Positions 35,592 to 52,019 of a stretch of 64,000 nt of DNA are shown here, one piece after another. The position numbers were made by a program, and so were the translations under genes. The notes under the pieces were generated by a model that worked only from the letters and a program-made list of their open reading frames with translations, was not told the origin of the DNA and ran no database searches. Position 1 is the stretch's first letter; each line of letters starts with the position of its first letter. The stretch is from Candidatus Babelota bacterium. Its GTDB lineage: Bacteria > Babelota > Babeliae > Babelales > UBA12411. The DNA is taken from contig DOJW01000008.1 of the NCBI GenBank assembly GCA_003511165.1, forward strand, positions 106,010 to 170,009. The letters run 5' to 3'.

Positions 35592-35964
35592 TGGTGGAGG
35601 CGATGGGAATTGAACCCATGTCCGAAACAATATGTAAACTAAGCACTACATGTTTAGCCTTCGAATATACTACTGATTCATCTCAAAGGCAAAAAATTAA
35701 ATCACAGCCAGTTTAGTGATATGATCTAGCTACTAAACCAAAAAATCTTGCTAGAAAATTCTATCTGATTAATACAAGTTAGATTAGCTGATAGCCACGC
35801 CGCACTAACAGGAGTCAAGCTAAATAACTGAGTTAATTAAGCTTGAGCTGCAGAATATTGTCCTGCACTTATTGTTTTTGCTTTAGTTCTTTAACGAGTT
35901 CCCAAAACAAAACTCGACATGCTCTCAAGTCGACACGTTATCCCGTCGAAACCGTGACGCCCCC
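35592..35964 (-). ncRNA. ssrA: transfer-messenger RNA (tmRNA)
   Basis: Minus-strand read: 5' GGGGGCGTCACGGTTTCGACGGGATAACG ... 3' GGACATGGGTTCAATTCCCATCGCCTCCACCA. The acceptor stem has a G3:U pair and there is a T-arm. Internal ORF GCA AAA ACA ATA AGT GCA GGA CAA TAT TCT GCA GCT CAA GCT TAA. Confidence 0.93.
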
Positions 35965-42160: not shown

Positions 42161-45100
42161 ATGAAAGTTTCAAAAATTATAGTTTTAGCTTTGTTTATCG
42201 GAAGCATTTTGGGAAATATACGAATTAAATGCGGGGAAGAAGAAGAAGCAATATCCCGTGCAATTGCAAATATACAAAAAAACTACGACGACGAAATATT
42301 AAAACCATATGAACACAATTTAGAAGTTAATCTTAAAGCGATTAAAGAAATAGAAGGCAATATTAAACAAACTAAAAGCAATCTTGAAAAATCACAATCA
42401 CAAGATTCAATTGAATATCATAAATCACAACTGGTTGATCATGAAAAACGTCTTGAAAACGCAATAAAAATATACCTCGATACCATAGAAATTTTTTTAA
42501 AAAACGCAGAAAGTAGAAAAAATCTAATACTAGACGAAATAGCATATCATATCCAAAGAATAGCTAACCTTACACTACGCAAAGAATTAGACCTAAAACT
42601 AAAATTAGAAACAGATCAAATCACAGAAACAATAAGTAAAAAAAGAGCTCAACTTGAGGAAGAGATTAGACTCATACAAGAAGAAGCTAAACGCCTTAAA
42701 GAAGAAATTAAAATTGCAATCGAAAAAAAACAAAAAGAAGATGAACTCGCAAAAGAAAAAGCTAAAATTGAAGCTGAAGCTAAACAAAAAGAAGATGAAA
42801 CTACCTTGGGAAAACAAAAAAATATATTTAGAGATAATATACGCCTTCATTATTTTAAAATCGCTTGTGAAATACTTTCGGAAATAGAAAGTAAAAACCA
42901 AACTAATGATTTTTTTAAATCTATTTGGGACCCTTCTTTTGACATCAACTCAAAAGATAAAGATGAAAACACAATATTAATTGTTGCTGCGATGCATGGC
43001 CTTGATAAATTCGTTACATTTTTACTCGAAAATGGTGCTGATGCAAATGTAAAAGGAGAATATGAGAGAACGGTCTTCTTCTACCTTAACACTAAAAATA
43101 TTGCAATCATTTTGATTGATTGGTTGAAAAAAAATGGTTTAAATCCTGCTGAATATTTGAATGACCGAGACCTCGATGGAAATACGCCTTTAATGGTTGC
43201 AGCAATGCATAGTGCAACTGAGTCACTAAAAATTTTACTAGATAATGGCGCAAATATTAACGCAAGGAATAACGCTGGCCGCTCTTTTCTTCATTTTATT
43301 TATGCAAATCCAAAAGGTATTAGTTATTGGATCGAAATAGCCAAGACTACTGAGCTAACACCAACATTACCAACAATTGATGAATACTATCGAACCCCTC
43401 TATACTGCGCTTTAGAAGAAGGAGAAGATGTAACACAATTCACAAAAGAATTAGAAAAACAAAATGCTCCACTGTTTGGCACCAATAGCGAAGGTCAACC
43501 GGTCTTCCCATATGCTACAAATAATCCTGCTATTTTGGTTAAAGCATTAACCGAAGCTGTGCAAAAACAAAGTAGCATGGACGAGGAATCTCAGCAGCGT
43601 ATTTTGGGTGAAATTCTACTACCTTCAATTTTATTTCAACACCAAGTCTGTCTACCCCTTATAATAAAAGATCCAAAATTACTGCAAAATACTAAAAAAC
43701 TATTTAAAGAATTTGCACCTAAAAGAGTTGATGATTTTTTTGAAAAAACTATTAACGATGCTAAAAAGAATATTCCTCAAGTTCCTTTGCATCATTTAGC
43801 TATATTTATAGATAAAGATGATGAATGGGATGTCACTAATAAAGCTATGAGCGTAAAACTTACATCAATGCTTAAACAAGCAGGCACACCATGTCTCGTT
43901 ATAGGTGGCCATGTACTAAAACATGCGGCCACAAACCTGCATAAAGAAAAATTCGATTTTGAAAAAAACTTTTATTTTTTTACAATCAATGATGATAAAT
44001 TTTTTCCTGTTCTTGTTATTCCTAAAAATTATGCCGCAAGAAATGTAAGCGATAAATCTCTAATAAATTTGTCAAATTTATCTTGGCTAAGATCTTTAGG
44101 TTTTAACCCTAAAAATTTGGTTCATAAAAAATTTGCCAATATCGACTTCAGTAAAGAGCAAATAATTCCAACTAAAGAATTTGGGGAAAAAACTATTAAT
44201 CTGGTTAAAAATGTTTTGACTAATGTTAAAGAACGTGGACGAATTGTATATGTAAGCGGACATGGATATAGTTATATTCGACAAAAAATAGATACTATTT
44301 ATGAGCGTGCGGTAAACTTACCTTTAAACGCATTTTTTGATTTAATTAGAGAGTTAGAAGAAAAAGGCACATTGTTCACACACGTTTTAACATGTTACAT
44401 GGGGGGTGACAATTTATCAGCTTTGGAAAAAGTTATGATAAATGATTTTTACAATACAACGCTTGCAACTATGCTGGATACCCATCAAAAAACAAAAAGC
44501 ACTACTTCCGAAACTCATAATAAAATGTTTTTATCTGTTGCATCAACAGCAGATGTCTCAACAAGCGGAGACGTTGATACAAATTTATTCTTCCCAGCTG
44601 TCGATACGTTTTTCAACTTATTACGATCTGACGCAGTAAAAGATATGATGCCAAATCTATTTACTTGGCTTACAAGAATGTTTAGAACCGTTGGCGTTCG
44701 TAGAGATATTGTGAATTATCCACAAATCAGAATACCTGGTAATCAAACATCATTTTATCTTGCAGATATCCATGGAGACTTACAAATAATCAATAGAATG
44801 AACACCATGCAAGATCGCTTCACAATCGCACAAAAAGGGGATAAAAAAGTAGTTAAAATCAATAAACCAAAAGATATTGTCGTTACAAACAAAAATGTTT
44901 TGGTAACGTACATCGACCATGTCGAAAACAAAGTAATAATCGAAGATAAGGTACCTGTAATACTTGCCATGGGAACTAATGAATATTTCAGAACATTCAG
45001 TGAAATATTTGTAGACATACCTGAAATGGATTTTTTTAATTTTGCTTACAACAGTTTCTACCCTGCAGATTTTGGCGAAGAAATGGGTCATCGCGAAACT

Positions 45101-45781
45101 TATTTAATGAAAAAACTCACTTTTGCAAATGAAGATATTTTTGAAGATATTGATGTTCCACAAGAAATTGCTTCACAAAAACCACAGACTTTATACAACG
45201 TTTATCTCAAAAGAGGATTAGAAGAAAAAGCTGCTGTTATTTTTTCACTCGGACAAAATCCTACTGACGATGTTTTTGAGATAAATGAAGATAAAGTTGT
45301 AAGAAAACTCGAAGGCGAAGAGAAAGAACTTTATTTAGCTAGAGTTTCGGCAATGCAGGCAGAAGTTGGTCACTACTTTAGTCCACTAGAAGAAAAGCTT
45401 CTAAAAAATAGCGCTCTATTCTTACAAGAAAATAAACAAGATTTGGCAAAAGTATTTAAAACCGCATTAGTAAAAAGTGTTGTTTTGAGTGGAAGAGATT
45501 GCGATAAATTATTGTTATCATATTTAAAACTTCTTGATACAACTACAGATGAAGAAATATTAACTTCGCTCAAAGAACTTCTTCCTTTTTTGATGCAAAA
45601 TTACAAAGAAATTCCATCATGGACACTGCTTGAAAAAATGAAATTTGTAATTTTAAGTTTCAAAGAACTAAAAAAGGAAACAGTCGAAACTTTCGAAAAA
45701 ATAATAGATAAACTTTTTGAATTCGATGAGAAAAATAAAAAAGCATTAAAAGATCTACTAAAGAAAATTACAGTTAAATAA
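42161..45781 (+). CDS. giant secreted protein A: signal peptide, Glu/Lys coiled coil, ankyrin repeats, clan CD-like His/Cys domain, helical C-terminus
   Basis: 1206 aa. MKVSKIIVLALFIGSILG; ANK blocks DENTILIVAAMHGLDKFVTFLLENGADANV and DGNTPLMVAAMHSATESLKILLDNGANINA; RIVYVSGHGYSY (His701, nt 44261-44263) and FTHVLTCYMGG (Cys745, nt 44393-44395). Confidence 0.85.
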   Translation: MKVSKIIVLALFIGSILGNIRIKCGEEEEAISRAIANIQKNYDDEILKPYEHNLEVNLKAIKEIEGNIKQTKSNLEKSQSQDSIEYHKSQLVDHEKRLENAIKIYLDTIEIFLKNAESRKNLILDEIAYHIQRIANLTLRKELDLKLKLETDQITETISKKRAQLEEEIRLIQEEAKRLKEEIKIAIEKKQKEDELAKEKAKIEAEAKQKEDETTLGKQKNIFRDNIRLHYFKIACEILSEIESKNQTNDFFKSIWDPSFDINSKDKDENTILIVAAMHGLDKFVTFLLENGADANVKGEYERTVFFYLNTKNIAIILIDWLKKNGLNPAEYLNDRDLDGNTPLMVAAMHSATESLKILLDNGANINARNNAGRSFLHFIYANPKGISYWIEIAKTTELTPTLPTIDEYYRTPLYCALEEGEDVTQFTKELEKQNAPLFGTNSEGQPVFPYATNNPAILVKALTEAVQKQSSMDEESQQRILGEILLPSILFQHQVCLPLIIKDPKLLQNTKKLFKEFAPKRVDDFFEKTINDAKKNIPQVPLHHLAIFIDKDDEWDVTNKAMSVKLTSMLKQAGTPCLVIGGHVLKHAATNLHKEKFDFEKNFYFFTINDDKFFPVLVIPKNYAARNVSDKSLINLSNLSWLRSLGFNPKNLVHKKFANIDFSKEQIIPTKEFGEKTINLVKNVLTNVKERGRIVYVSGHGYSYIRQKIDTIYERAVNLPLNAFFDLIRELEEKGTLFTHVLTCYMGGDNLSALEKVMINDFYNTTLATMLDTHQKTKSTTSETHNKMFLSVASTADVSTSGDVDTNLFFPAVDTFFNLLRSDAVKDMMPNLFTWLTRMFRTVGVRRDIVNYPQIRIPGNQTSFYLADIHGDLQIINRMNTMQDRFTIAQKGDKKVVKINKPKDIVVTNKNVLVTYIDHVENKVIIEDKVPVILAMGTNEYFRTFSEIFVDIPEMDFFNFAYNSFYPADFGEEMGHRETYLMKKLTFANEDIFEDIDVPQEIASQKPQTLYNVYLKRGLEEKAAVIFSLGQNPTDDVFEINEDKVVRKLEGEEKELYLARVSAMQAEVGHYFSPLEEKLLKNSALFLQENKQDLAKVFKTALVKSVVLSGRDCDKLLLSYLKLLDTTTDEEILTSLKELLPFLMQNYKEIPSWTLLEKMKFVILSFKELKKETVETFEKIIDKLFEFDEKNKKALKDLLKKITVK

Positions 45782-45946: not shown

Positions 45947-48900
45947 AAAATGTCCCACTAAATTTTTATTATGAAATTGCGCAGTTGATTTTAAGAAATT
46001 AAAAAGTTGAAAGTAAAGGATAAAAATAAAAAATCGGTAAAACTTTCTTTTAAAGCTTTACCTTTAAAACTCAAAAAAGCTCCTAAACTATTATTATTAT
46101 TATTATTATTTTCTTGATTTTTTCATCCCATTTTTTCTAGAAAAGATAAGGTAGTTAACTTTTAATTTTTTAAAAAGGAAAAACATAAATGAAACTTGCA
46201 AAAATTATAGTTTTAGCTTTGTTTATCGGATGTATTTTGGGAAATATACAAAGTGCGAATGGTGATATTGAAAAGCAAATAAATCAAAGGGTTGAACAAA
46301 TTCAAAAAGATTACGAAGCTGCTCTAAAACACAATGAAGAATATTTAAAACGCTATGATGAACCAATAAAACGATATGAAAATGAAATAAAACAAATAAA
46401 AATCAAACTTGAAAAAGTTAAATCAGAATTTGGATCTCTTTGGGGCGAAGAATATAAATCGCAATTAATTTACGCTGAAAAACATCTCGAAGATACAAAG
46501 ACTGATCGCATAAAAACAAAAGAACTACTATTACAACAAGCAAAAGCTCATAAAAAATCCGCCGAAAAAGAATTAAAAGAAGATATTGAAAGACATGCTC
46601 GCGGAATACAATTCGAAGAATTTAGATTAAGAGAACAAGCAGAAGATGCCGCTCGAATAGAAGCAATAAGAAAAGAACAAGCAAAACTTGAAGAAGAAAG
46701 AAAACTCCGAGAAGAAGCTAGACTCAAAGAAGAAGCAAAAAAACTAGAAAAAGAAAAAGAAGAAAAACAAAATCCATTTAGAACAGAAATAAAAAAGCAC
46801 AACTTTGAAGGAGCGTTTGAAATTTTGAAAGAGATAGATCCTAAAAATCAAACTAATGACTTTTTCAAATCTGTTTGGGATGGTTCTGTTGATATTAACG
46901 CAAAAGACGAAGAAGGACAAACAGCTTTAGGATTTACAGTAAGTTATGGAAATAGCAATTTACTTTCTTTTTTACTCGATAATGGCGCAGATATTAATGC
47001 GAAAGATGGTTACGACAACACTGTATTTTTTCACATTGGAAATAAAAACATTGCAGAAATTTTAATCAATTGGTTGAAAAAAAATGGTTTAAACCCTGCT
47101 GAATATTTAAATGCAAAAAATCTCAATGGAGATACTCCATTTATCAATACTGTTGCAAGGAAACAAAATTCTGATCTTTTAATATATTTATTAGAAAATG
47201 GAGCAAGTATTGATACAAGAAACAACAATGGTCAAACAATCCTGCATTTTGCTAATGACAATCCAAATCAAATTGAATTTTGGACAAAAGTTACACAAAG
47301 CGCGCAAATAGCCAATATCTTATCGTTCATAGATGAATACTCAAGAACACCGCTTTATACCGCACTAGAAGAAGATGAACCTGTTAAAAAAAATGCACCA
47401 AAATTTGCAGCCGCACTTGAAAAACAAAACGCACCACTGTTTGGAACTAATAATGAAGGTCAACTAGTCTTTCCATATGCTACAAATAATCCTGCTATTT
47501 TAGTTAAAGCATTAACCGAAGCGATGCAAAAGAAAAGTAGCATGGACGAAGAATCTCAGCAGCGTATTTTGGGTGAAATTCTACTACCTTCAATTTTATT
47601 TCAACACCAAGCCTGTCTACCTCTTATAATGAAAGATGCACAGCTACTGAAAAAGACTCGCGAATTATTCAGAGAATTTGAACCCAAAAGAGTTAATGAT
47701 TTTTTTGAAAAAACTATTAACGATGCTAAAAAGAATATTCCTCAAGTTCCTTTGCATCATTTAGCTATTTTCATTGACCAAGATGGCGAATCACATGGAC
47801 CAAGAGCAGTAAGTTTGAATCTTGTAAGAATTCTTCAAAATAAAAAAGAGCCTTGTCTTATCTTCGGTAAACATTTATTATTTAATGCTGACTTTATAAG
47901 AAAAGCAGATAAAATCGATTTGGATTTAGAAAACAGTTTTCATTTTTTCATTGTTAATAATAATCAATCCGCTGTGCTTATCATCCCAAAAGAATATATA
48001 AAAAGTTTTATCCCTTCTACAATAAAATTATCAGATATTGCTATTCTTAGATGGCTAGGGTTTAACCCGCAAAGCTTAACTCACAAAAAATTTTCAAAAA
48101 TAGATTTAAAGACAAAAAGCGATATCTCTGCTGATGAATTTGGCAAACAAACTGTCGAATCGATAAAAAATGTTTTGACCAACGTCAAAGAGCGTGGACG
48201 GATTGTTCAATTAGAAGGTCATGGCTGGAGTTATTTAAGGCAAAGAAAAAACCCTACAAATGCTATCGCTGTAAATCTTTCTCTACCTTACTTTTTAGAT
48301 TTGATTAGAGATCTAGAAGAAAAAGGCACACTGTTCACATATGTTCTAACTTGCTACATGGGAGGCGATAATTTATCCGCTTTGGAAAGGGTTATGATCA
48401 ATGATTTTTATAATACTGAACTTGCTAAGATGCTGAATGCTCACCAAAAAACAAAAAGTGCTACTCCCGAAACTCACAATAAAATGTTTTTATCTGTTGC
48501 ATCAACTGCAGATATATCAACAAGTGGAATGGTAGATACCAATTTATTTTTCCCAGCTGTCGATACGTTTTTCAATTTATTAAAATCTGACGCAGCAAAA
48601 GATATGACGACCAATTTATTTGCCTGGATTACAAGAATGTTTAGAACCGTCGGAGTTTTAAGAGATATAGTCAATTATCCACAAATTAGAATCCCTGGCA
48701 ATCAAACATCATTTTACCTTGCAGATATCCATGGAGACTTACAAATAATCAATAGAGTAAACAGTATGCAAGATCGCTTCATAATAGTGCAAGAAGGAGA
48801 TAGAAAAGTAGTTAAAGTCAATAAGCCAAAAGATATTGTCGTTGCAAACAAAAATGTTTTGGTAACATACATAGATCATGTCGAAAACAAAGTAATAATC

Positions 48901-49743
48901 GAAGAAAAAGTACCGGTAATACTCGCCATGGGAACTAATGAATATTTCAGAACATTCAGTGAAATATTTGTAGACATACCACAAATGGATTTCTTTAATT
49001 TTGCATACAACAGTTTTTACAAAAATCCTTTTGCGGAAGAAATGGGCCATCGCGAAACTTATTTAATGAAAAAACTCACTTTTGCAAATGAAGATATTTT
49101 TGAAGATATTGATGTCCCACAAGAAATCGCATCACAAAAAGCTCAGACTTTGTACAACGTTTATCTCAAAAGAGGATTAGAAGAAAAAGCTGCTGTTATT
49201 TTTTCACTCGGACAAAATCCTACTGACGATGTTTTTGAGATAAATGAAGATAAAGTTGTAAGAAAACTCGAAGGCGAAGAGAAAGAACTTTATTTAGCTA
49301 GAGTTTCGGCAATGCAGGCAGAAGTTGGTCACTACTTTAGTCCACTAGAAGAAAAGCTTCTAAAAAATAGCGCTCTATTCTTACAAGAAAATAAACAAGA
49401 TTTGGCAAAAGTATTTAAAACCGCATTAGTAAAAAGTGTTGTTTTGAGTGGAAGAGATTGCGATAAATTATTGCAGTCATATTTAAAATTTCTTGATACA
49501 GCTACAGATGAAGAAACATTAAATACGCTCAAAGAACTTCTTCCATTTTTGATGCGAAATTACAAAGAGATTCCTGCATGGACACTACTTGAAAAAATGA
49601 AATTTGTAATTTTAAGCTTCAAAGAACTAAAAAAGGGAACTGTCGAAACTTTCGAAAAAATAATAGATAAACTTTTTGAATTCGATGAGAAAAATAAAAA
49701 AACATTAAAAGATCTTCTTAAAAAAATCACAATATCAAAGTAA
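45881..49743. repeat. tandem segmental duplication, unit 2 (through the stop of giant gene B)
   Basis: Collinear with 41853-45781. The 3' flank of unit 1 is not found after 49743 but reappears at 50861-50972. Confidence 0.9.
46189..49743 (+). CDS. giant secreted protein B, paralog of A
   Basis: 1184 aa. MKLAKIIVLALFIGCILG; ANK blocks; RIVQLEGHGWSY (His678, nt 48220-48222) and FTYVLTCYMGG (Cys722, nt 48352-48354). The C-terminal third is nearly identical to A. Confidence 0.85.
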   Translation: MKLAKIIVLALFIGCILGNIQSANGDIEKQINQRVEQIQKDYEAALKHNEEYLKRYDEPIKRYENEIKQIKIKLEKVKSEFGSLWGEEYKSQLIYAEKHLEDTKTDRIKTKELLLQQAKAHKKSAEKELKEDIERHARGIQFEEFRLREQAEDAARIEAIRKEQAKLEEERKLREEARLKEEAKKLEKEKEEKQNPFRTEIKKHNFEGAFEILKEIDPKNQTNDFFKSVWDGSVDINAKDEEGQTALGFTVSYGNSNLLSFLLDNGADINAKDGYDNTVFFHIGNKNIAEILINWLKKNGLNPAEYLNAKNLNGDTPFINTVARKQNSDLLIYLLENGASIDTRNNNGQTILHFANDNPNQIEFWTKVTQSAQIANILSFIDEYSRTPLYTALEEDEPVKKNAPKFAAALEKQNAPLFGTNNEGQLVFPYATNNPAILVKALTEAMQKKSSMDEESQQRILGEILLPSILFQHQACLPLIMKDAQLLKKTRELFREFEPKRVNDFFEKTINDAKKNIPQVPLHHLAIFIDQDGESHGPRAVSLNLVRILQNKKEPCLIFGKHLLFNADFIRKADKIDLDLENSFHFFIVNNNQSAVLIIPKEYIKSFIPSTIKLSDIAILRWLGFNPQSLTHKKFSKIDLKTKSDISADEFGKQTVESIKNVLTNVKERGRIVQLEGHGWSYLRQRKNPTNAIAVNLSLPYFLDLIRDLEEKGTLFTYVLTCYMGGDNLSALERVMINDFYNTELAKMLNAHQKTKSATPETHNKMFLSVASTADISTSGMVDTNLFFPAVDTFFNLLKSDAAKDMTTNLFAWITRMFRTVGVLRDIVNYPQIRIPGNQTSFYLADIHGDLQIINRVNSMQDRFIIVQEGDRKVVKVNKPKDIVVANKNVLVTYIDHVENKVIIEEKVPVILAMGTNEYFRTFSEIFVDIPQMDFFNFAYNSFYKNPFAEEMGHRETYLMKKLTFANEDIFEDIDVPQEIASQKAQTLYNVYLKRGLEEKAAVIFSLGQNPTDDVFEINEDKVVRKLEGEEKELYLARVSAMQAEVGHYFSPLEEKLLKNSALFLQENKQDLAKVFKTALVKSVVLSGRDCDKLLQSYLKFLDTATDEETLNTLKELLPFLMRNYKEIPAWTLLEKMKFVILSFKELKKGTVETFEKIIDKLFEFDEKNKKTLKDLLKKITISK

Positions 49744-49794: not shown

Positions 49795-50343
49795 ATGAAT
49801 AAGTTAAATAAAATACTGTTTACAATGGTTGCAACGCTAATGTTTTCAAGTTATCCAATCAGCGCTCAAAGACAAATAACAACTATAGTAAAAGTAATAA
49901 ATAAGACACAATATGAAGCTCACATCTCATGTCTATGTGGAGATGGTTCTGTAGAAAAAGTAGTTTTACCACAAAGTGAAATGTCTGTGTATGGTAGATA
50001 TGATATATCTATGAAGTTCGACATGCCTATATTTCAGATTATTGGTGTTTCACGATGGGTACCAGTATCAAACCGCTCCATATATTCGTATTTATCTCTT
50101 GATAAAAATGGTGAAACAATTGAAGAAAATTTAATTAAAGAAACTCGAAAGATCATAGCGCTTGATGAAGGAAGAGGCAAATTGCTTACTGATTGGAACG
50201 AATGTTTATATATATCAAAAGCTGCCATCTTGATTATTGATTGTGATGGAAGTTTACATATAAAGGAATATGCAGTACTTGATGATCAAAAAGATCTTGA
50301 AGGACTATCCCAAGCTCAGACAATTTTACACGGAATAGATTGA
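49795..50343 (+). CDS. small secreted hypothetical protein S1 (paralog of 51537..52019)
   Basis: Signal MNKLNKILFTMVATLMFSSYPISA; ITTIVKVINKTQYEAHIS...; ends TILHGID. The 25-nt leader is identical to that of S2. Confidence 0.7.
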   Translation: MNKLNKILFTMVATLMFSSYPISAQRQITTIVKVINKTQYEAHISCLCGDGSVEKVVLPQSEMSVYGRYDISMKFDMPIFQIIGVSRWVPVSNRSIYSYLSLDKNGETIEENLIKETRKIIALDEGRGKLLTDWNECLYISKAAILIIDCDGSLHIKEYAVLDDQKDLEGLSQAQTILHGID

Positions 50344-50362
50344 AATTTCTCTAAAAATAAAA

Positions 50363-50394
50363 AGGCGGTAAAGATTTTAAAATCTTTACCGCCT
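50363..50394. terminator. 32-bp perfect palindrome hairpin after S1 (bidirectional terminator candidate)
   Basis: AGGCGGTAAAGATTTT|AAAATCTTTACCGCCT. Confidence 0.6.
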
Positions 50395-50461
50395 AATACT
50401 TAGAATAGACCTCTTTTGAAACCTTTAGCTATCTTAGTCAGACTCTTGAATTTTTACTTCC

Positions 50462-50510
50462 GTTCGCCCTGAGCGAAGCCATTCTATGGCGTAGTCGAAT
50501 GGGTGCGAAC
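50462..50510. repeat. GC-rich compound hairpin element downstream of the GIY-YIG gene
   Basis: Outer stem GTTCGCCC / GGGTGCGAAC and inner stem GCCAT-tct-ATGGC. A GC-rich island in AT-rich spacer. Confidence 0.5.
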
Positions 50511-50563
50511 TTCTTTATTTTAATATCAGGGATTTATAATTTTGAATTGATTCATGCTTAAAC

Positions 50564-50839
50564 CTACTTTTTATCCCTGTTTGCTAATGCTTGCCATCCC
50601 CCTGAAATAAGTAATTCCTTTTTTACTCGAGTCCATTTTTTCATTTGTCTTTCTGCCATAAGCGCTTCATATCTAGTAGCAAAGGCTTGTGTAAAGACTA
50701 TCTGAATTGGAAGTCTTGAACTTGTATACCCACTATACTTTCTAAATTTATGTTCCGAAATTCTTTTTTCAAGATTATCAGTATGCCCTATGTAGTAGGA
50801 ATTATCATCACATTTGAGTATGTAAACATAAAATGACAA
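50564..50839 (-). CDS. GIY-YIG nuclease superfamily protein (UPF0213/YhbQ-like), apparent TTG start
   Basis: (M)SFYVYILKCDDNSYYIGHTDNLEKRISEH (GIY...YIG motif), ...RQMKKWTRVKKELLI. AGAAGG RBS 7 nt before the TTG. Confidence 0.85.
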   Translation of the reverse strand: MSFYVYILKCDDNSYYIGHTDNLEKRISEHKFRKYSGYTSSRLPIQIVFTQAFATRYEALMAERQMKKWTRVKKELLISGGWQALANRDKK

Positions 50840-50844
50840 CGTAT

Positions 50845-50862
50845 AACCTTCTTAAGAAGGTT
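50845..50862. repeat. 18-bp perfect palindrome AACCTTCTTAAGAAGGTT abutting the GIY-YIG start
   Basis: Read directly. It contains the putative RBS of the GIY-YIG gene and lies at the junction with the orphan flank. Confidence 0.8.
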
Positions 50863-50972
50863 ACAGTCAAATAAAGATTAAAAGGGGTATGAATTTTTTG
50901 GAATTCATACCCCTTTTTGTAAGTTCATAAATGCTAATTAAATATAAAAACTTCGGCTCTCTAAAATACCAC
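50861..50972. repeat. orphan copy of the 3' end plus terminator flank of giant gene A (aligns with 45768-45878)
   Basis: ttacagtcaaataaagattaaaaggggtatgaattttttggaattcatacccctttttgtaagttcataaatgctaattaaatataaaaacttcggctctctaaaataccac compared with the A flank. The terminator hairpin at 50884-50918 keeps pairing through compensatory changes. Confidence 0.85.
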
Positions 50973-51072
50973 CTCCACGGCACTTATCATTACCCACATC
51001 TTTTACTAATCTAAACTTTTATGATTTTATATGAAAATAAACATTTTTATGTATGTTAAATATACATCACCT

Positions 51073-51351
51073 CCTGTCGTCCTTGCGTAAGCGAGGATCC
51101 AGTTTTCATGCATTTATCAAAAGTAGTATCAAAATGAAAAATTATTACGTATATATTCTATGCTCTAAAACAAATGGAACTTTATATATTGGTGTGACAA
51201 ATAATATTGCAAGACGAATTTATGAGCACAAAAACAAGTTAAACATTGGTGCCGTGAGTAGAAGTTACAATTAATCGAAGCCTCAAATCCAAAAATGGAA
51301 AGAAATTAATTGAAATTAAAACTGGATCCTCGCTTACGCAAGGATGACAGG
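51073..51351. mobile_element. 279-bp element bounded by 34-bp terminal inverted repeats and carrying a decayed GIY-YIG gene (MITE-like)
   Basis: Left IR 51073-51106 cctgtcgtccttgcgtaagcgaggatccagtttt. Right IR 51318-51351 aaaactggatcctcgcttacgcaaggatgacagg. The reverse complements differ at one position. Confidence 0.7.
51134..51309 (+). pseudogene. GIY-YIG nuclease pseudogene (internal deletion or frameshift)
   Basis: MKNYYVYILCSKTNGTLYIGVTNNIARRIYEHKNK then a premature stop at 51272-51274. A -1 frame continues LIEASNPK..., resembling the family C-terminus (LIE..NP.W). The central ~40 aa of the family are missing. Confidence 0.7.
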
Positions 51352-51386
51352 AAAAGTTGTTTTGCGGTTTTTTAAATTTAATTTAA

Positions 51387-51506
51387 CGTCGAACTCACGT
51401 TAAATTACATCTTAAAGAATGTGAATGGCGTTGGAATAAAACTTCTGATAAACTTAATCTCGAATTATGGAAAATTGTATTAAAATTTAATCGTCTGATG
51501 GTCTAA
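51387..51506 (+). mobile_element. C-terminal fragment of an IS1595-family-like transposase (remnant)
   Basis: Open frame RRTHVKLHLKECEWRWNKTSDKLNLELWKIVLKFNRLMV*. (F/L)HLKECE(F/W)R(F/W)N is, from memory, characteristic of the IS1595/ISXO2-like transposase C-terminus. No upstream body. Confidence 0.5.
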
Positions 51507-51536
51507 AGCCAAAAAATATTTAAAGAAAGGTCTTAT

Positions 51537-52019
51537 ATGAATAAGCTTAAAAAAATGCTGCTTATATTTATTACTATTTTAGGATTTGCAGTTATTACAA
51601 TTAATGTTGAGGGTAAAATAACAAAAATAGTAAGCGTAATTAATAAAACAGCTGCTCCTGTTCATATCTCACGTTCAATATATGATGGTTCCATAGAAAA
51701 AGTAGTTCCGGCTTTCGAGGAAATGCTTTTGGGTGATGATATGTATATGGATAACGACTTCAATAGTTCTCGACCGCATTATATGACAGTTTCACGAATG
51801 GTCTTAGATCAAATTTGTACAACAATGATATATGCTAATGGAAGCGGTAGTATAATTGAAAATAATAAAAATAGCATAGGACATTTTCATAACGACAGAT
51901 TTAGATTGATTATTCACCGTGATGGAAAGTTGGAGGCAGAAGAGCCTTATGACATTTATAATGACAAATATCTCGAAAGATTGCGTGACGCTGATACAAT
52001 TTTACACGGAATACACTAA
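51537..52019 (+). CDS. small secreted hypothetical protein S2 (paralog of 49795..50343)
   Basis: Signal MNKLKKMLLIFITILGFAVITINVEG; ITKIVSVINKTAAPVHIS...; ends TILHGIH. Confidence 0.7.
   Translation: MNKLKKMLLIFITILGFAVITINVEGKITKIVSVINKTAAPVHISRSIYDGSIEKVVPAFEEMLLGDDMYMDNDFNSSRPHYMTVSRMVLDQICTTMIYANGSGSIIENNKNSIGHFHNDRFRLIIHRDGKLEAEEPYDIYNDKYLERLRDADTILHGIH

Follow-up and report, generated by a model that had tools for sequence, protein, structure and literature searches.

A GIY-YIG pseudogene between inverted hairpins in a Candidatus Dependentiae genome: a probable decayed Ssn/SRM module

The window (the whole stretch of DNA that was analysed, 64 kb) belongs to a Candidatus Dependentiae genome that was recovered from groundwater metagenomes, is ankyrin-rich and has 31% GC. 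The features described here lie in an intergenic region (50344-51536) between two tandem paralogous genes coding for 182 and 160 amino acids; these flanking paralogs (49795-50343 and 51537-52019) are small secreted-protein genes. Read along the forward strand, the region contains a terminator hairpin, a GC-rich hairpin termed element-2 (50462-50510, forward strand), an intact GIY-YIG gene (50564-50839, reverse strand), a palindrome followed by a terminator-like hairpin (together 50842-50917, reverse strand) and the flagged element, a GIY-YIG pseudogene enclosed by the two arms of an inverted repeat. Two adjacent ORFs of ~1200 amino acids are located upstream (42161-45781 and 46189-49743); ankyrin-repeat matches were present in the gene calls of matching contigs, and a short sequence stretch is repeated downstream of both ORFs. 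A tmRNA gene was located at 35592-35964 on the reverse strand (tag peptide AGQYSAAQA). It was the sole real match when the whole window was searched against Rfam at the gathering threshold and 50300-51550 was searched by E-value; nothing relevant to the element was returned.

The ORF between the arms (51134-51274) has 46 codons and matched the GIY-YIG family PF01541 (E = 7e-11), which is its sole domain. The GIY and YIG tyrosines and RR..EH are present in its N-terminus. The pseudogene as a whole spans 51134-51309 on the forward strand, with codons 1-36 in frame 1 and the C-terminal part in another frame. The latter (51226-51309) reads KQVKHWCRE*KLQLIEASNPKMERN*; it was aligned with the stretch KQLKHWNRKWKIELIEKENP in an intact relative. 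The Pfam match and this alignment together bear out the sequence-only reading of a 46-codon GIY-YIG ORF with a family-like C-terminal remnant in another frame. A placement in which the frame-1 tail '…GAVSRSYN' is true family sequence and the deletion follows it was tried and rejected. Because tblastn aligns the KQVKHWCRE*KLQLIEASNP frame to intact relatives, the deletion was placed between the HKNKL and EKQLK codons. It is ~100 nt long, shifts the frame, has the microhomology AAAAACAAGTTAAA and led to the loss of the catalytic Glu region. The pseudogene carries TAG at 51259-51261, where a second Dependentiae contig (L036, described below) has TGG, a Trp codon; its original stop is TAA 51307-51309. 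The window pseudogene is unable to encode an active nuclease. An exact sequence look-up of the 46-amino-acid ORF returned no record, and the only NCBIfam match was the sub-threshold TIGR01453 (group I intron endonuclease), at 24.7 bits against a cut-off of 56.

The arms were delimited by a repeat search at 51072-51109 (forward strand) and 51315-51352 (reverse strand); they are 38 nt long and 95% complementary, with 205 nt between them. The 34-nt arms described earlier (51073-51106 and 51318-51351) were recovered with their single mismatch (G51079 against the partner of A51345). The 21-nt core TCCTTGCGTAAGCGAGGATCC has exactly two matches in the 64 kb, at 51080-51100 (forward) and 51324-51344 (reverse), a result obtained in 0 of 100 dinucleotide shuffles even with three mismatches allowed. 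Each arm consists of one oriented hairpin of the format TGTC(A/G)-TCCTTGC-GTAA-GCGAGGA-TCCAG and was predicted to fold as ssDNA into a 7-8-bp stem with a GTAA loop. The left-arm motif (51075-51102, TGTCG-TCCTTGC-GTAA-GCGAGGA-TCCAG) points inward on the pseudogene's sense strand, with a predicted fold of -5.5 kcal/mol (z -2.6); the right-arm motif (51322-51349, TGTCA-TCCTTGC-GTAA-GCGAGGA-TCCAG) also points inward, and its predicted fold is -6.6 kcal/mol (z -4.2).

This anatomy was compared with that of the published Ssn/SRM system, in which Ssn nucleases act on Ssn-related motifs, or SRMs (Chenal et al., Nat Commun 2025, PMC11893778). The Neisseria meningitidis protein SsnA, of 94 amino acids, has GIY-YIG as its single domain (CDD cd10448); it binds the NTS hairpin CGTCATTCCCGCGMAVGCGGGAATCYRG as ssDNA only and cuts a few nucleotides upstream of it. 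Cutting depends critically on the bases immediately 5' of the palindrome, and binding on the C that directly follows it (PMC11893778). Hairpin-specific, ssDNA-only binding with upstream cleavage was found for four tested Ssn homologs, and an SRM is located near 71% of the bacterial ssnA homologs and on each side of 42% of them (PMC11893778). No further literature on Ssn repeats was found beyond this paper. The right arm aligned to the NTS consensus without gaps, with 21 of 28 positions the same; three of its departures from the consensus are paired changes in the stem (T-A to C-G, C-G to T-A and C-G to T.G), and the GTC, the C that follows the stem and the final CAG are retained. In both arms GTC stands directly 5' of the palindrome and C directly 3' of it, and SRM-type hairpins are found on both the 5' and the 3' flank of the pseudogene. 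The published SRM search pattern, HGTCWYN(0-2)YYVSBRHN(0-5)WNVSBRGN(0-2)RNCYNB, is a hand-made heuristic; it gave zero literal matches in the window, and a one-substitution search was used in its place. The right arm is one substitution away from the pattern (a T at the V position, giving a G.T stem wobble) and the left arm is two away. Single-stranded DNA carrying TGTCATCCTYGCGTAAGCGAGGATCCAG is, by this comparison, a predicted substrate of Ssn-type enzymes. A hairpin variant that is just missed by the published pattern indicates that the pattern undercounts the family.

A TTTT run a few bases past each hairpin, on the inner side, would suit arms that serve as ordinary terminators of transcription, as insulators or as an RNA element, with no relation to the gene. 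The terminator scan nevertheless passed over both arms while flagging three other nearby hairpins, and the T-run is not kept in the other 37 copies of the motif, whereas the unpaired GTCA and TCC are. An RNA element would also have to be reconciled with the lack of an Rfam match at the arms and with the inactivity of the published Ssn enzymes on RNA (PMC11893778). This explanation was judged to be extremely unlikely.

The core TCCTYGCGTAAGCGAGGATCC was scanned in one genome per GTDB species and in metagenomes. The exact 21-nt core was found at 13 GTDB loci (~0.5 expected, by our own estimate from the size of the collection) and at 22 further metagenome loci, and the cross-genome search for the arm thus places the core at 35 other loci in several phyla. 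The taxa are Alphaproteobacteria, Fibrobacter, Saccharibacteria, Kuenenbacteria, Bauldia and Dependentiae; viral contigs scanned for the core gave 0 matches. GTCA precedes the core in 38 of 39 copies elsewhere, against GTCG in the left arm, and the likeness between copies stops sharply beyond GTCA…TCC. The published SRM pattern is fitted literally by 18 of the 39 core copies elsewhere (the C variant). One Fibrobacter MAG has several copies, and the 64-kb window, with 2 copies only, gives no sign of a genome-wide motif expansion of the kind seen in Neisseria or Wolbachia. At 32 of the 35 loci elsewhere the same hairpin stands alone with no GIY-YIG gene close by. The arms are oriented, widespread short hairpin motifs and not DDE-type transposon ends, and the sequence-only reading of them as terminal inverted repeats was abandoned: they are single oriented SRM/NTS hairpins that occur mostly solo elsewhere.

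Several of these copies have features of their own. In Fibrobacter succinogenes RUG10790 four core copies (L008, L014, L015 and L017) share ~60 nt more on the 3' side, ATACAGTT…GATTACAAGA.GTATGGATGG…, a conservation that points to a larger repeat unit there. In L010, from a Fibrobacter MAG, SRM hairpins lie in frame in two paralogous lipoprotein genes (340-1206 and 1229-1975), within the N-terminal signal-peptide region (…SRPSSSRKRGSIQ… and …SLTSSLRKRGSIQ…), and the second gene also bears the long SRM form VILSGTKWNRRIS; these in-frame hairpins recall the Rickettsia palindromic elements inside genes and are of use for asking whether Ssn modules are selfish and mobile. Two further contigs (L038 5214-5290 and L043 2667-2743) carry two inverted cores separated by only 27 nt of gene-free sequence, resembling a REPIN doublet, and the inner flank TCCAGTTTT is common to this doublet and to the window arms.

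Relatives of the 46-amino-acid ORF (60-81% protein identity) have the same hairpin-gene-hairpin layout. In L022 the gene is enclosed by 35-nt inverted arms (GTCATCCTGAGCGAAGCGAAGGATC) with 299 nt between them, and in L025 and L018 SRMs are present on both sides of the gene, in L018 as arrays. The window's own core was found ~50 nt upstream of an intact-looking 97-codon ssn gene (start codon unclear) in L035, where the 3' motif of the module (520-860) is inverted and reads TCCTCAC-GAAA-GTGAGGA against TCCTCGC/GCGAGGA on the 5' side, a compensatory pair, with loop GTAA against GAAA. L041 has the core on both sides of an ssn gene of ~88 codons, together with the canonical NTS CGTCATTCCCGCGCAAGCGGGAATC. 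Intact-looking GIY-YIG copies are bounded in the same layout, with the window's core on both sides in L041, and the hairpin sequences vary from one relative to another. The genes of L035 and L041 have the single-domain size of ~90-100 amino acids; many database relatives are truncated to 43-80 amino acids, and the window copy is truncated as well. The spacing of the arms forms a series from ~300 nt around a full gene through 205 nt around the deleted gene to 27 nt in the gene-less doublet, and this series provides material on whether Ssn modules are selfish mobile units.

These relatives bear on the idea that a free-standing GIY-YIG homing endonuclease gene was inserted into a pre-existing palindrome. 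The GIY-YIG domain itself, the weak TIGR01453 match below threshold and the presence of two GIY-YIG genes within one intergenic region are in keeping with such an insertion. The protein family, however, has a single domain of ~95 amino acids and no DNA-binding module, no intron RNA was found with Rfam and there is no intron context, and the same hairpin is mostly solo elsewhere. The flanking hairpins of the relatives also vary in sequence while keeping the SRM format, which suggests that they travel or co-evolve with the gene and are not a fixed target. A homing gene is accordingly regarded as highly improbable.

The intact neighbour (50564-50839, reverse strand) is a single-domain GIY-YIG gene of 91 amino acids in the UPF0213-like clade, with matches to the solved UPF0213 structures 1zg2 (BH0048, E = 2e-15) and 1ywl (EF2693, E = 1.3e-12). 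The two GIY-YIG genes of the window are ~36-50% identical. They appear to represent different GIY-YIG clades, because the 91-amino-acid protein matches UPF0213 structures and P0013, an Ssn-like relative of the pseudogene, has no PDB match at E < 0.01. On sequence grounds the truncated gene was assigned to the Ssn-like clade and not to the YhbQ/UPF0213 clade, so the earlier label 'YhbQ-like' was moved from it; it is the intact neighbour that is UPF0213-like. That gene had been described as lacking the arms and having a GC hairpin and a palindrome of its own. It does lack the arms, and both structures were located: the element-2 hairpin at 50462-50510, and a 10-bp palindrome (50842-50865) with a 16-bp terminator-like hairpin (50880-50917) upstream of the gene on the reverse strand.

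Element-2 (GTTCGCCCTGAGCGAAG-[GCCATTCTATGGC]-GTAGTCGAATGGGTGCGAAC, in short GTTCGCCCTGAGCG…GGGTGCGAAC) is GC-rich and lies 3' of the intact gene, inverted relative to it. Members of the element-2 family have the form CCGTTCGCCCTGAGCG-(variable self-complementary hairpin)-GAAGTCGAAYGGGTRCGAAC, and one adjoins every UPF0213-like homolog examined (60-78% protein identity). It precedes the gene in L049-L052, follows it in L048 and in the window, and is present as inverted copies on both sides of the gene in L053, L054 and L057; in ~330 kb of unrelated loci the strict motif occurs once or twice. In L053 the UPF0213-like gene (~880-1420) is situated between sufD and sufS and occupies the loop formed by an inverted repeat of >100 nt that includes element-2. 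The inner core of element-2, TGAGCG…CGAAG…TCGAA, resembles the long SRM forms of L010 and L022. Element-2 is without GTCAT, and the published SRM pattern cannot match it. The literature searched contained no paper on repeats of UPF0213 or YhbQ genes.

A block of the window (50406-51353) is shared with L036 (516-952), another Dependentiae contig, at 84-94% identity and in another gene neighbourhood, the L036 genes on both sides being unrelated to those of the window. In L036 the pseudogene has the deletion seen in the window, and the two copies are 94% identical over 375 nt. The right edge of the homology lies 2-3 nt outside the GTCAT of the right motif, which is the outer SRM edge, and an extra tandem SRM is present in L036 at 481-509, just past the homology border. 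On the left the homology runs on for ~160 nt past the left arm and resumes at window 50472-50406, leaving L036 without window 50473-50981 (509 bp, including the intact GIY-YIG gene). This difference was considered as the insertion of a mobile UPF0213 cassette into the window, L036 being the empty site. That reading was rejected: the element-2 hairpin, a conserved unit that is intact in eight other loci, is interrupted by the junction, so it is L036 that carries a deletion.

Judged from this alignment, the shared unit is the ~950-bp block with both GIY-YIG modules. Its occurrence in two contexts, in two copies only, hints that the hairpins may be sites of movement or recombination. As the left border in L036 is ~160 nt past the left arm, the arm-to-arm unit is not demonstrably what moved. 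The right border falls on the side of the hairpin where cleavage is predicted, and it bears on the mobility of Ssn modules. A tentative proposal, to which we give somewhat less than an even chance, is that UPF0213-like proteins would be a second family of hairpin-specific ssDNA nucleases, with element-2 as their cognate repeat, and that the ~950-bp two-module block would be a composite unit moving or recombining at hairpins. If this were true, the Ssn concept, and with it the range of specificities for cutting ssDNA, would reach another GIY-YIG clade.

The same data bear on a cut-and-paste origin of the element, in which it would be a new class of MITE- or DDE-like cassette bounded by terminal inverted repeats and the GIY-YIG gene would be its cargo or its transposase. 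The 38-nt inverted arms do bracket the gene tightly, a 94%-identical copy exists in another gene context (L036) and a gene-less doublet with 27 nt between its arms is found in L038 and L043. A target-site duplication was looked for at the arm ends and none was seen, the flanks (CATCACC to the left and AAAGTTG to the right) having no common repeat; the element contains neither a DDE nor another transposase, its only ORF being the GIY-YIG one. The arms are moreover oriented single hairpins with a mostly solitary distribution, the block shared with L036 runs past the left arm, and the layout with its likeness to an insertion sequence has already been described for Ssn, the authors having compared NTS-ssnA-NTS with an insertion sequence and with REP/RAYT (PMC11893778). 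Such a cassette is therefore considered to be quite unlikely. The pseudogene was detected by tblastn in L001-L003 and also in the short contig L004. A search for an empty site of the SRM-ssn-SRM module found none among the four assemblies with the locus, in which the spacing from the intact gene to the next gene downstream is the same. Mobility of the module is put forward as a hypothesis.

The reading that we prefer, with a probability of about 0.86, is that the element is a decayed Ssn/SRM module, that is, a pseudogene for a site-specific ssDNA endonuclease of the Ssn family, flanked by inverted cognate hairpins. The GIY-YIG family is probably the enzyme acting on the repeats. In the mechanism proposed, the product of the ancestral gene would have recognized both window hairpins and, the motifs being inverted, would have made its cuts on opposite strands, immediately beyond the two ends of the element. 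The positions predicted for these cuts coincide with the start of arm identity (~3 nt before GTC) and with the end of the homology to L036. The module may at one time have spread, or undergone rearrangement, much as REP/RAYT systems do; the copy in the window would now be a relic, and its hairpins would be substrates only for an Ssn enzyme encoded elsewhere in the genome. Of the mobile cassette proposed in the sequence-only reading, one part stands, namely that a gene with inverted flanking repeats is one unit that recurs in other genomes; it is not a distinct new class, since the layout has been published (PMC11893778). By this reading the element is a new, decayed example from a Candidatus Dependentiae genome; the layout itself dates from the 2025 report. 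Only the association of element-2 with UPF0213-like genes and the block found in two contexts may go beyond published work.

Among the known systems, the REP/REPIN/RAYT (TnpA_REP) 'REPtrons' are alike in having a short conserved sequence next to an imperfect palindrome, inverted copies around a gene, gene-less doublets (as in L038) and many copies in some genomes. The enzyme here is a GIY-YIG protein and not a Y1 HUH transposase, however, and the likeness is architectural only; we know of no strand-transfer activity for a GIY-YIG nuclease of the Ssn type. The IS200/IS605 elements resemble the module in that their hairpin ends are recognized as ssDNA and no target-site duplication is formed, but both of their end hairpins lie on one strand and are dissimilar, whereas those of the window are inverted copies, and the enzyme family differs. 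With the GIY-YIG homing endonucleases (I-TevI and the Seg proteins) the catalytic domain is held in common; the separate DNA-binding domain, the cutting of dsDNA and the location in introns or between phage genes that characterize those enzymes have no counterpart here. The likeness to UPF0213/YhbQ-like proteins (1zg2 and 1ywl) concerns the neighbour at 50564-50839 and not the flagged element. The element differs from the published Ssn/SRM system in its Dependentiae host, in its dead gene, in its low number of motif copies (2 in the 64 kb) and in the variant TCCTTGC-GTAA-GCGAGGA, which is one base off the published pattern. The two are alike in the small single-domain GIY-YIG gene, in the oriented hairpin of ~28 nt that carries GTC(A/T)Y before the stem and C-YRG after it, in the motifs that flank the gene on both sides and in the solo copies of the motif elsewhere.
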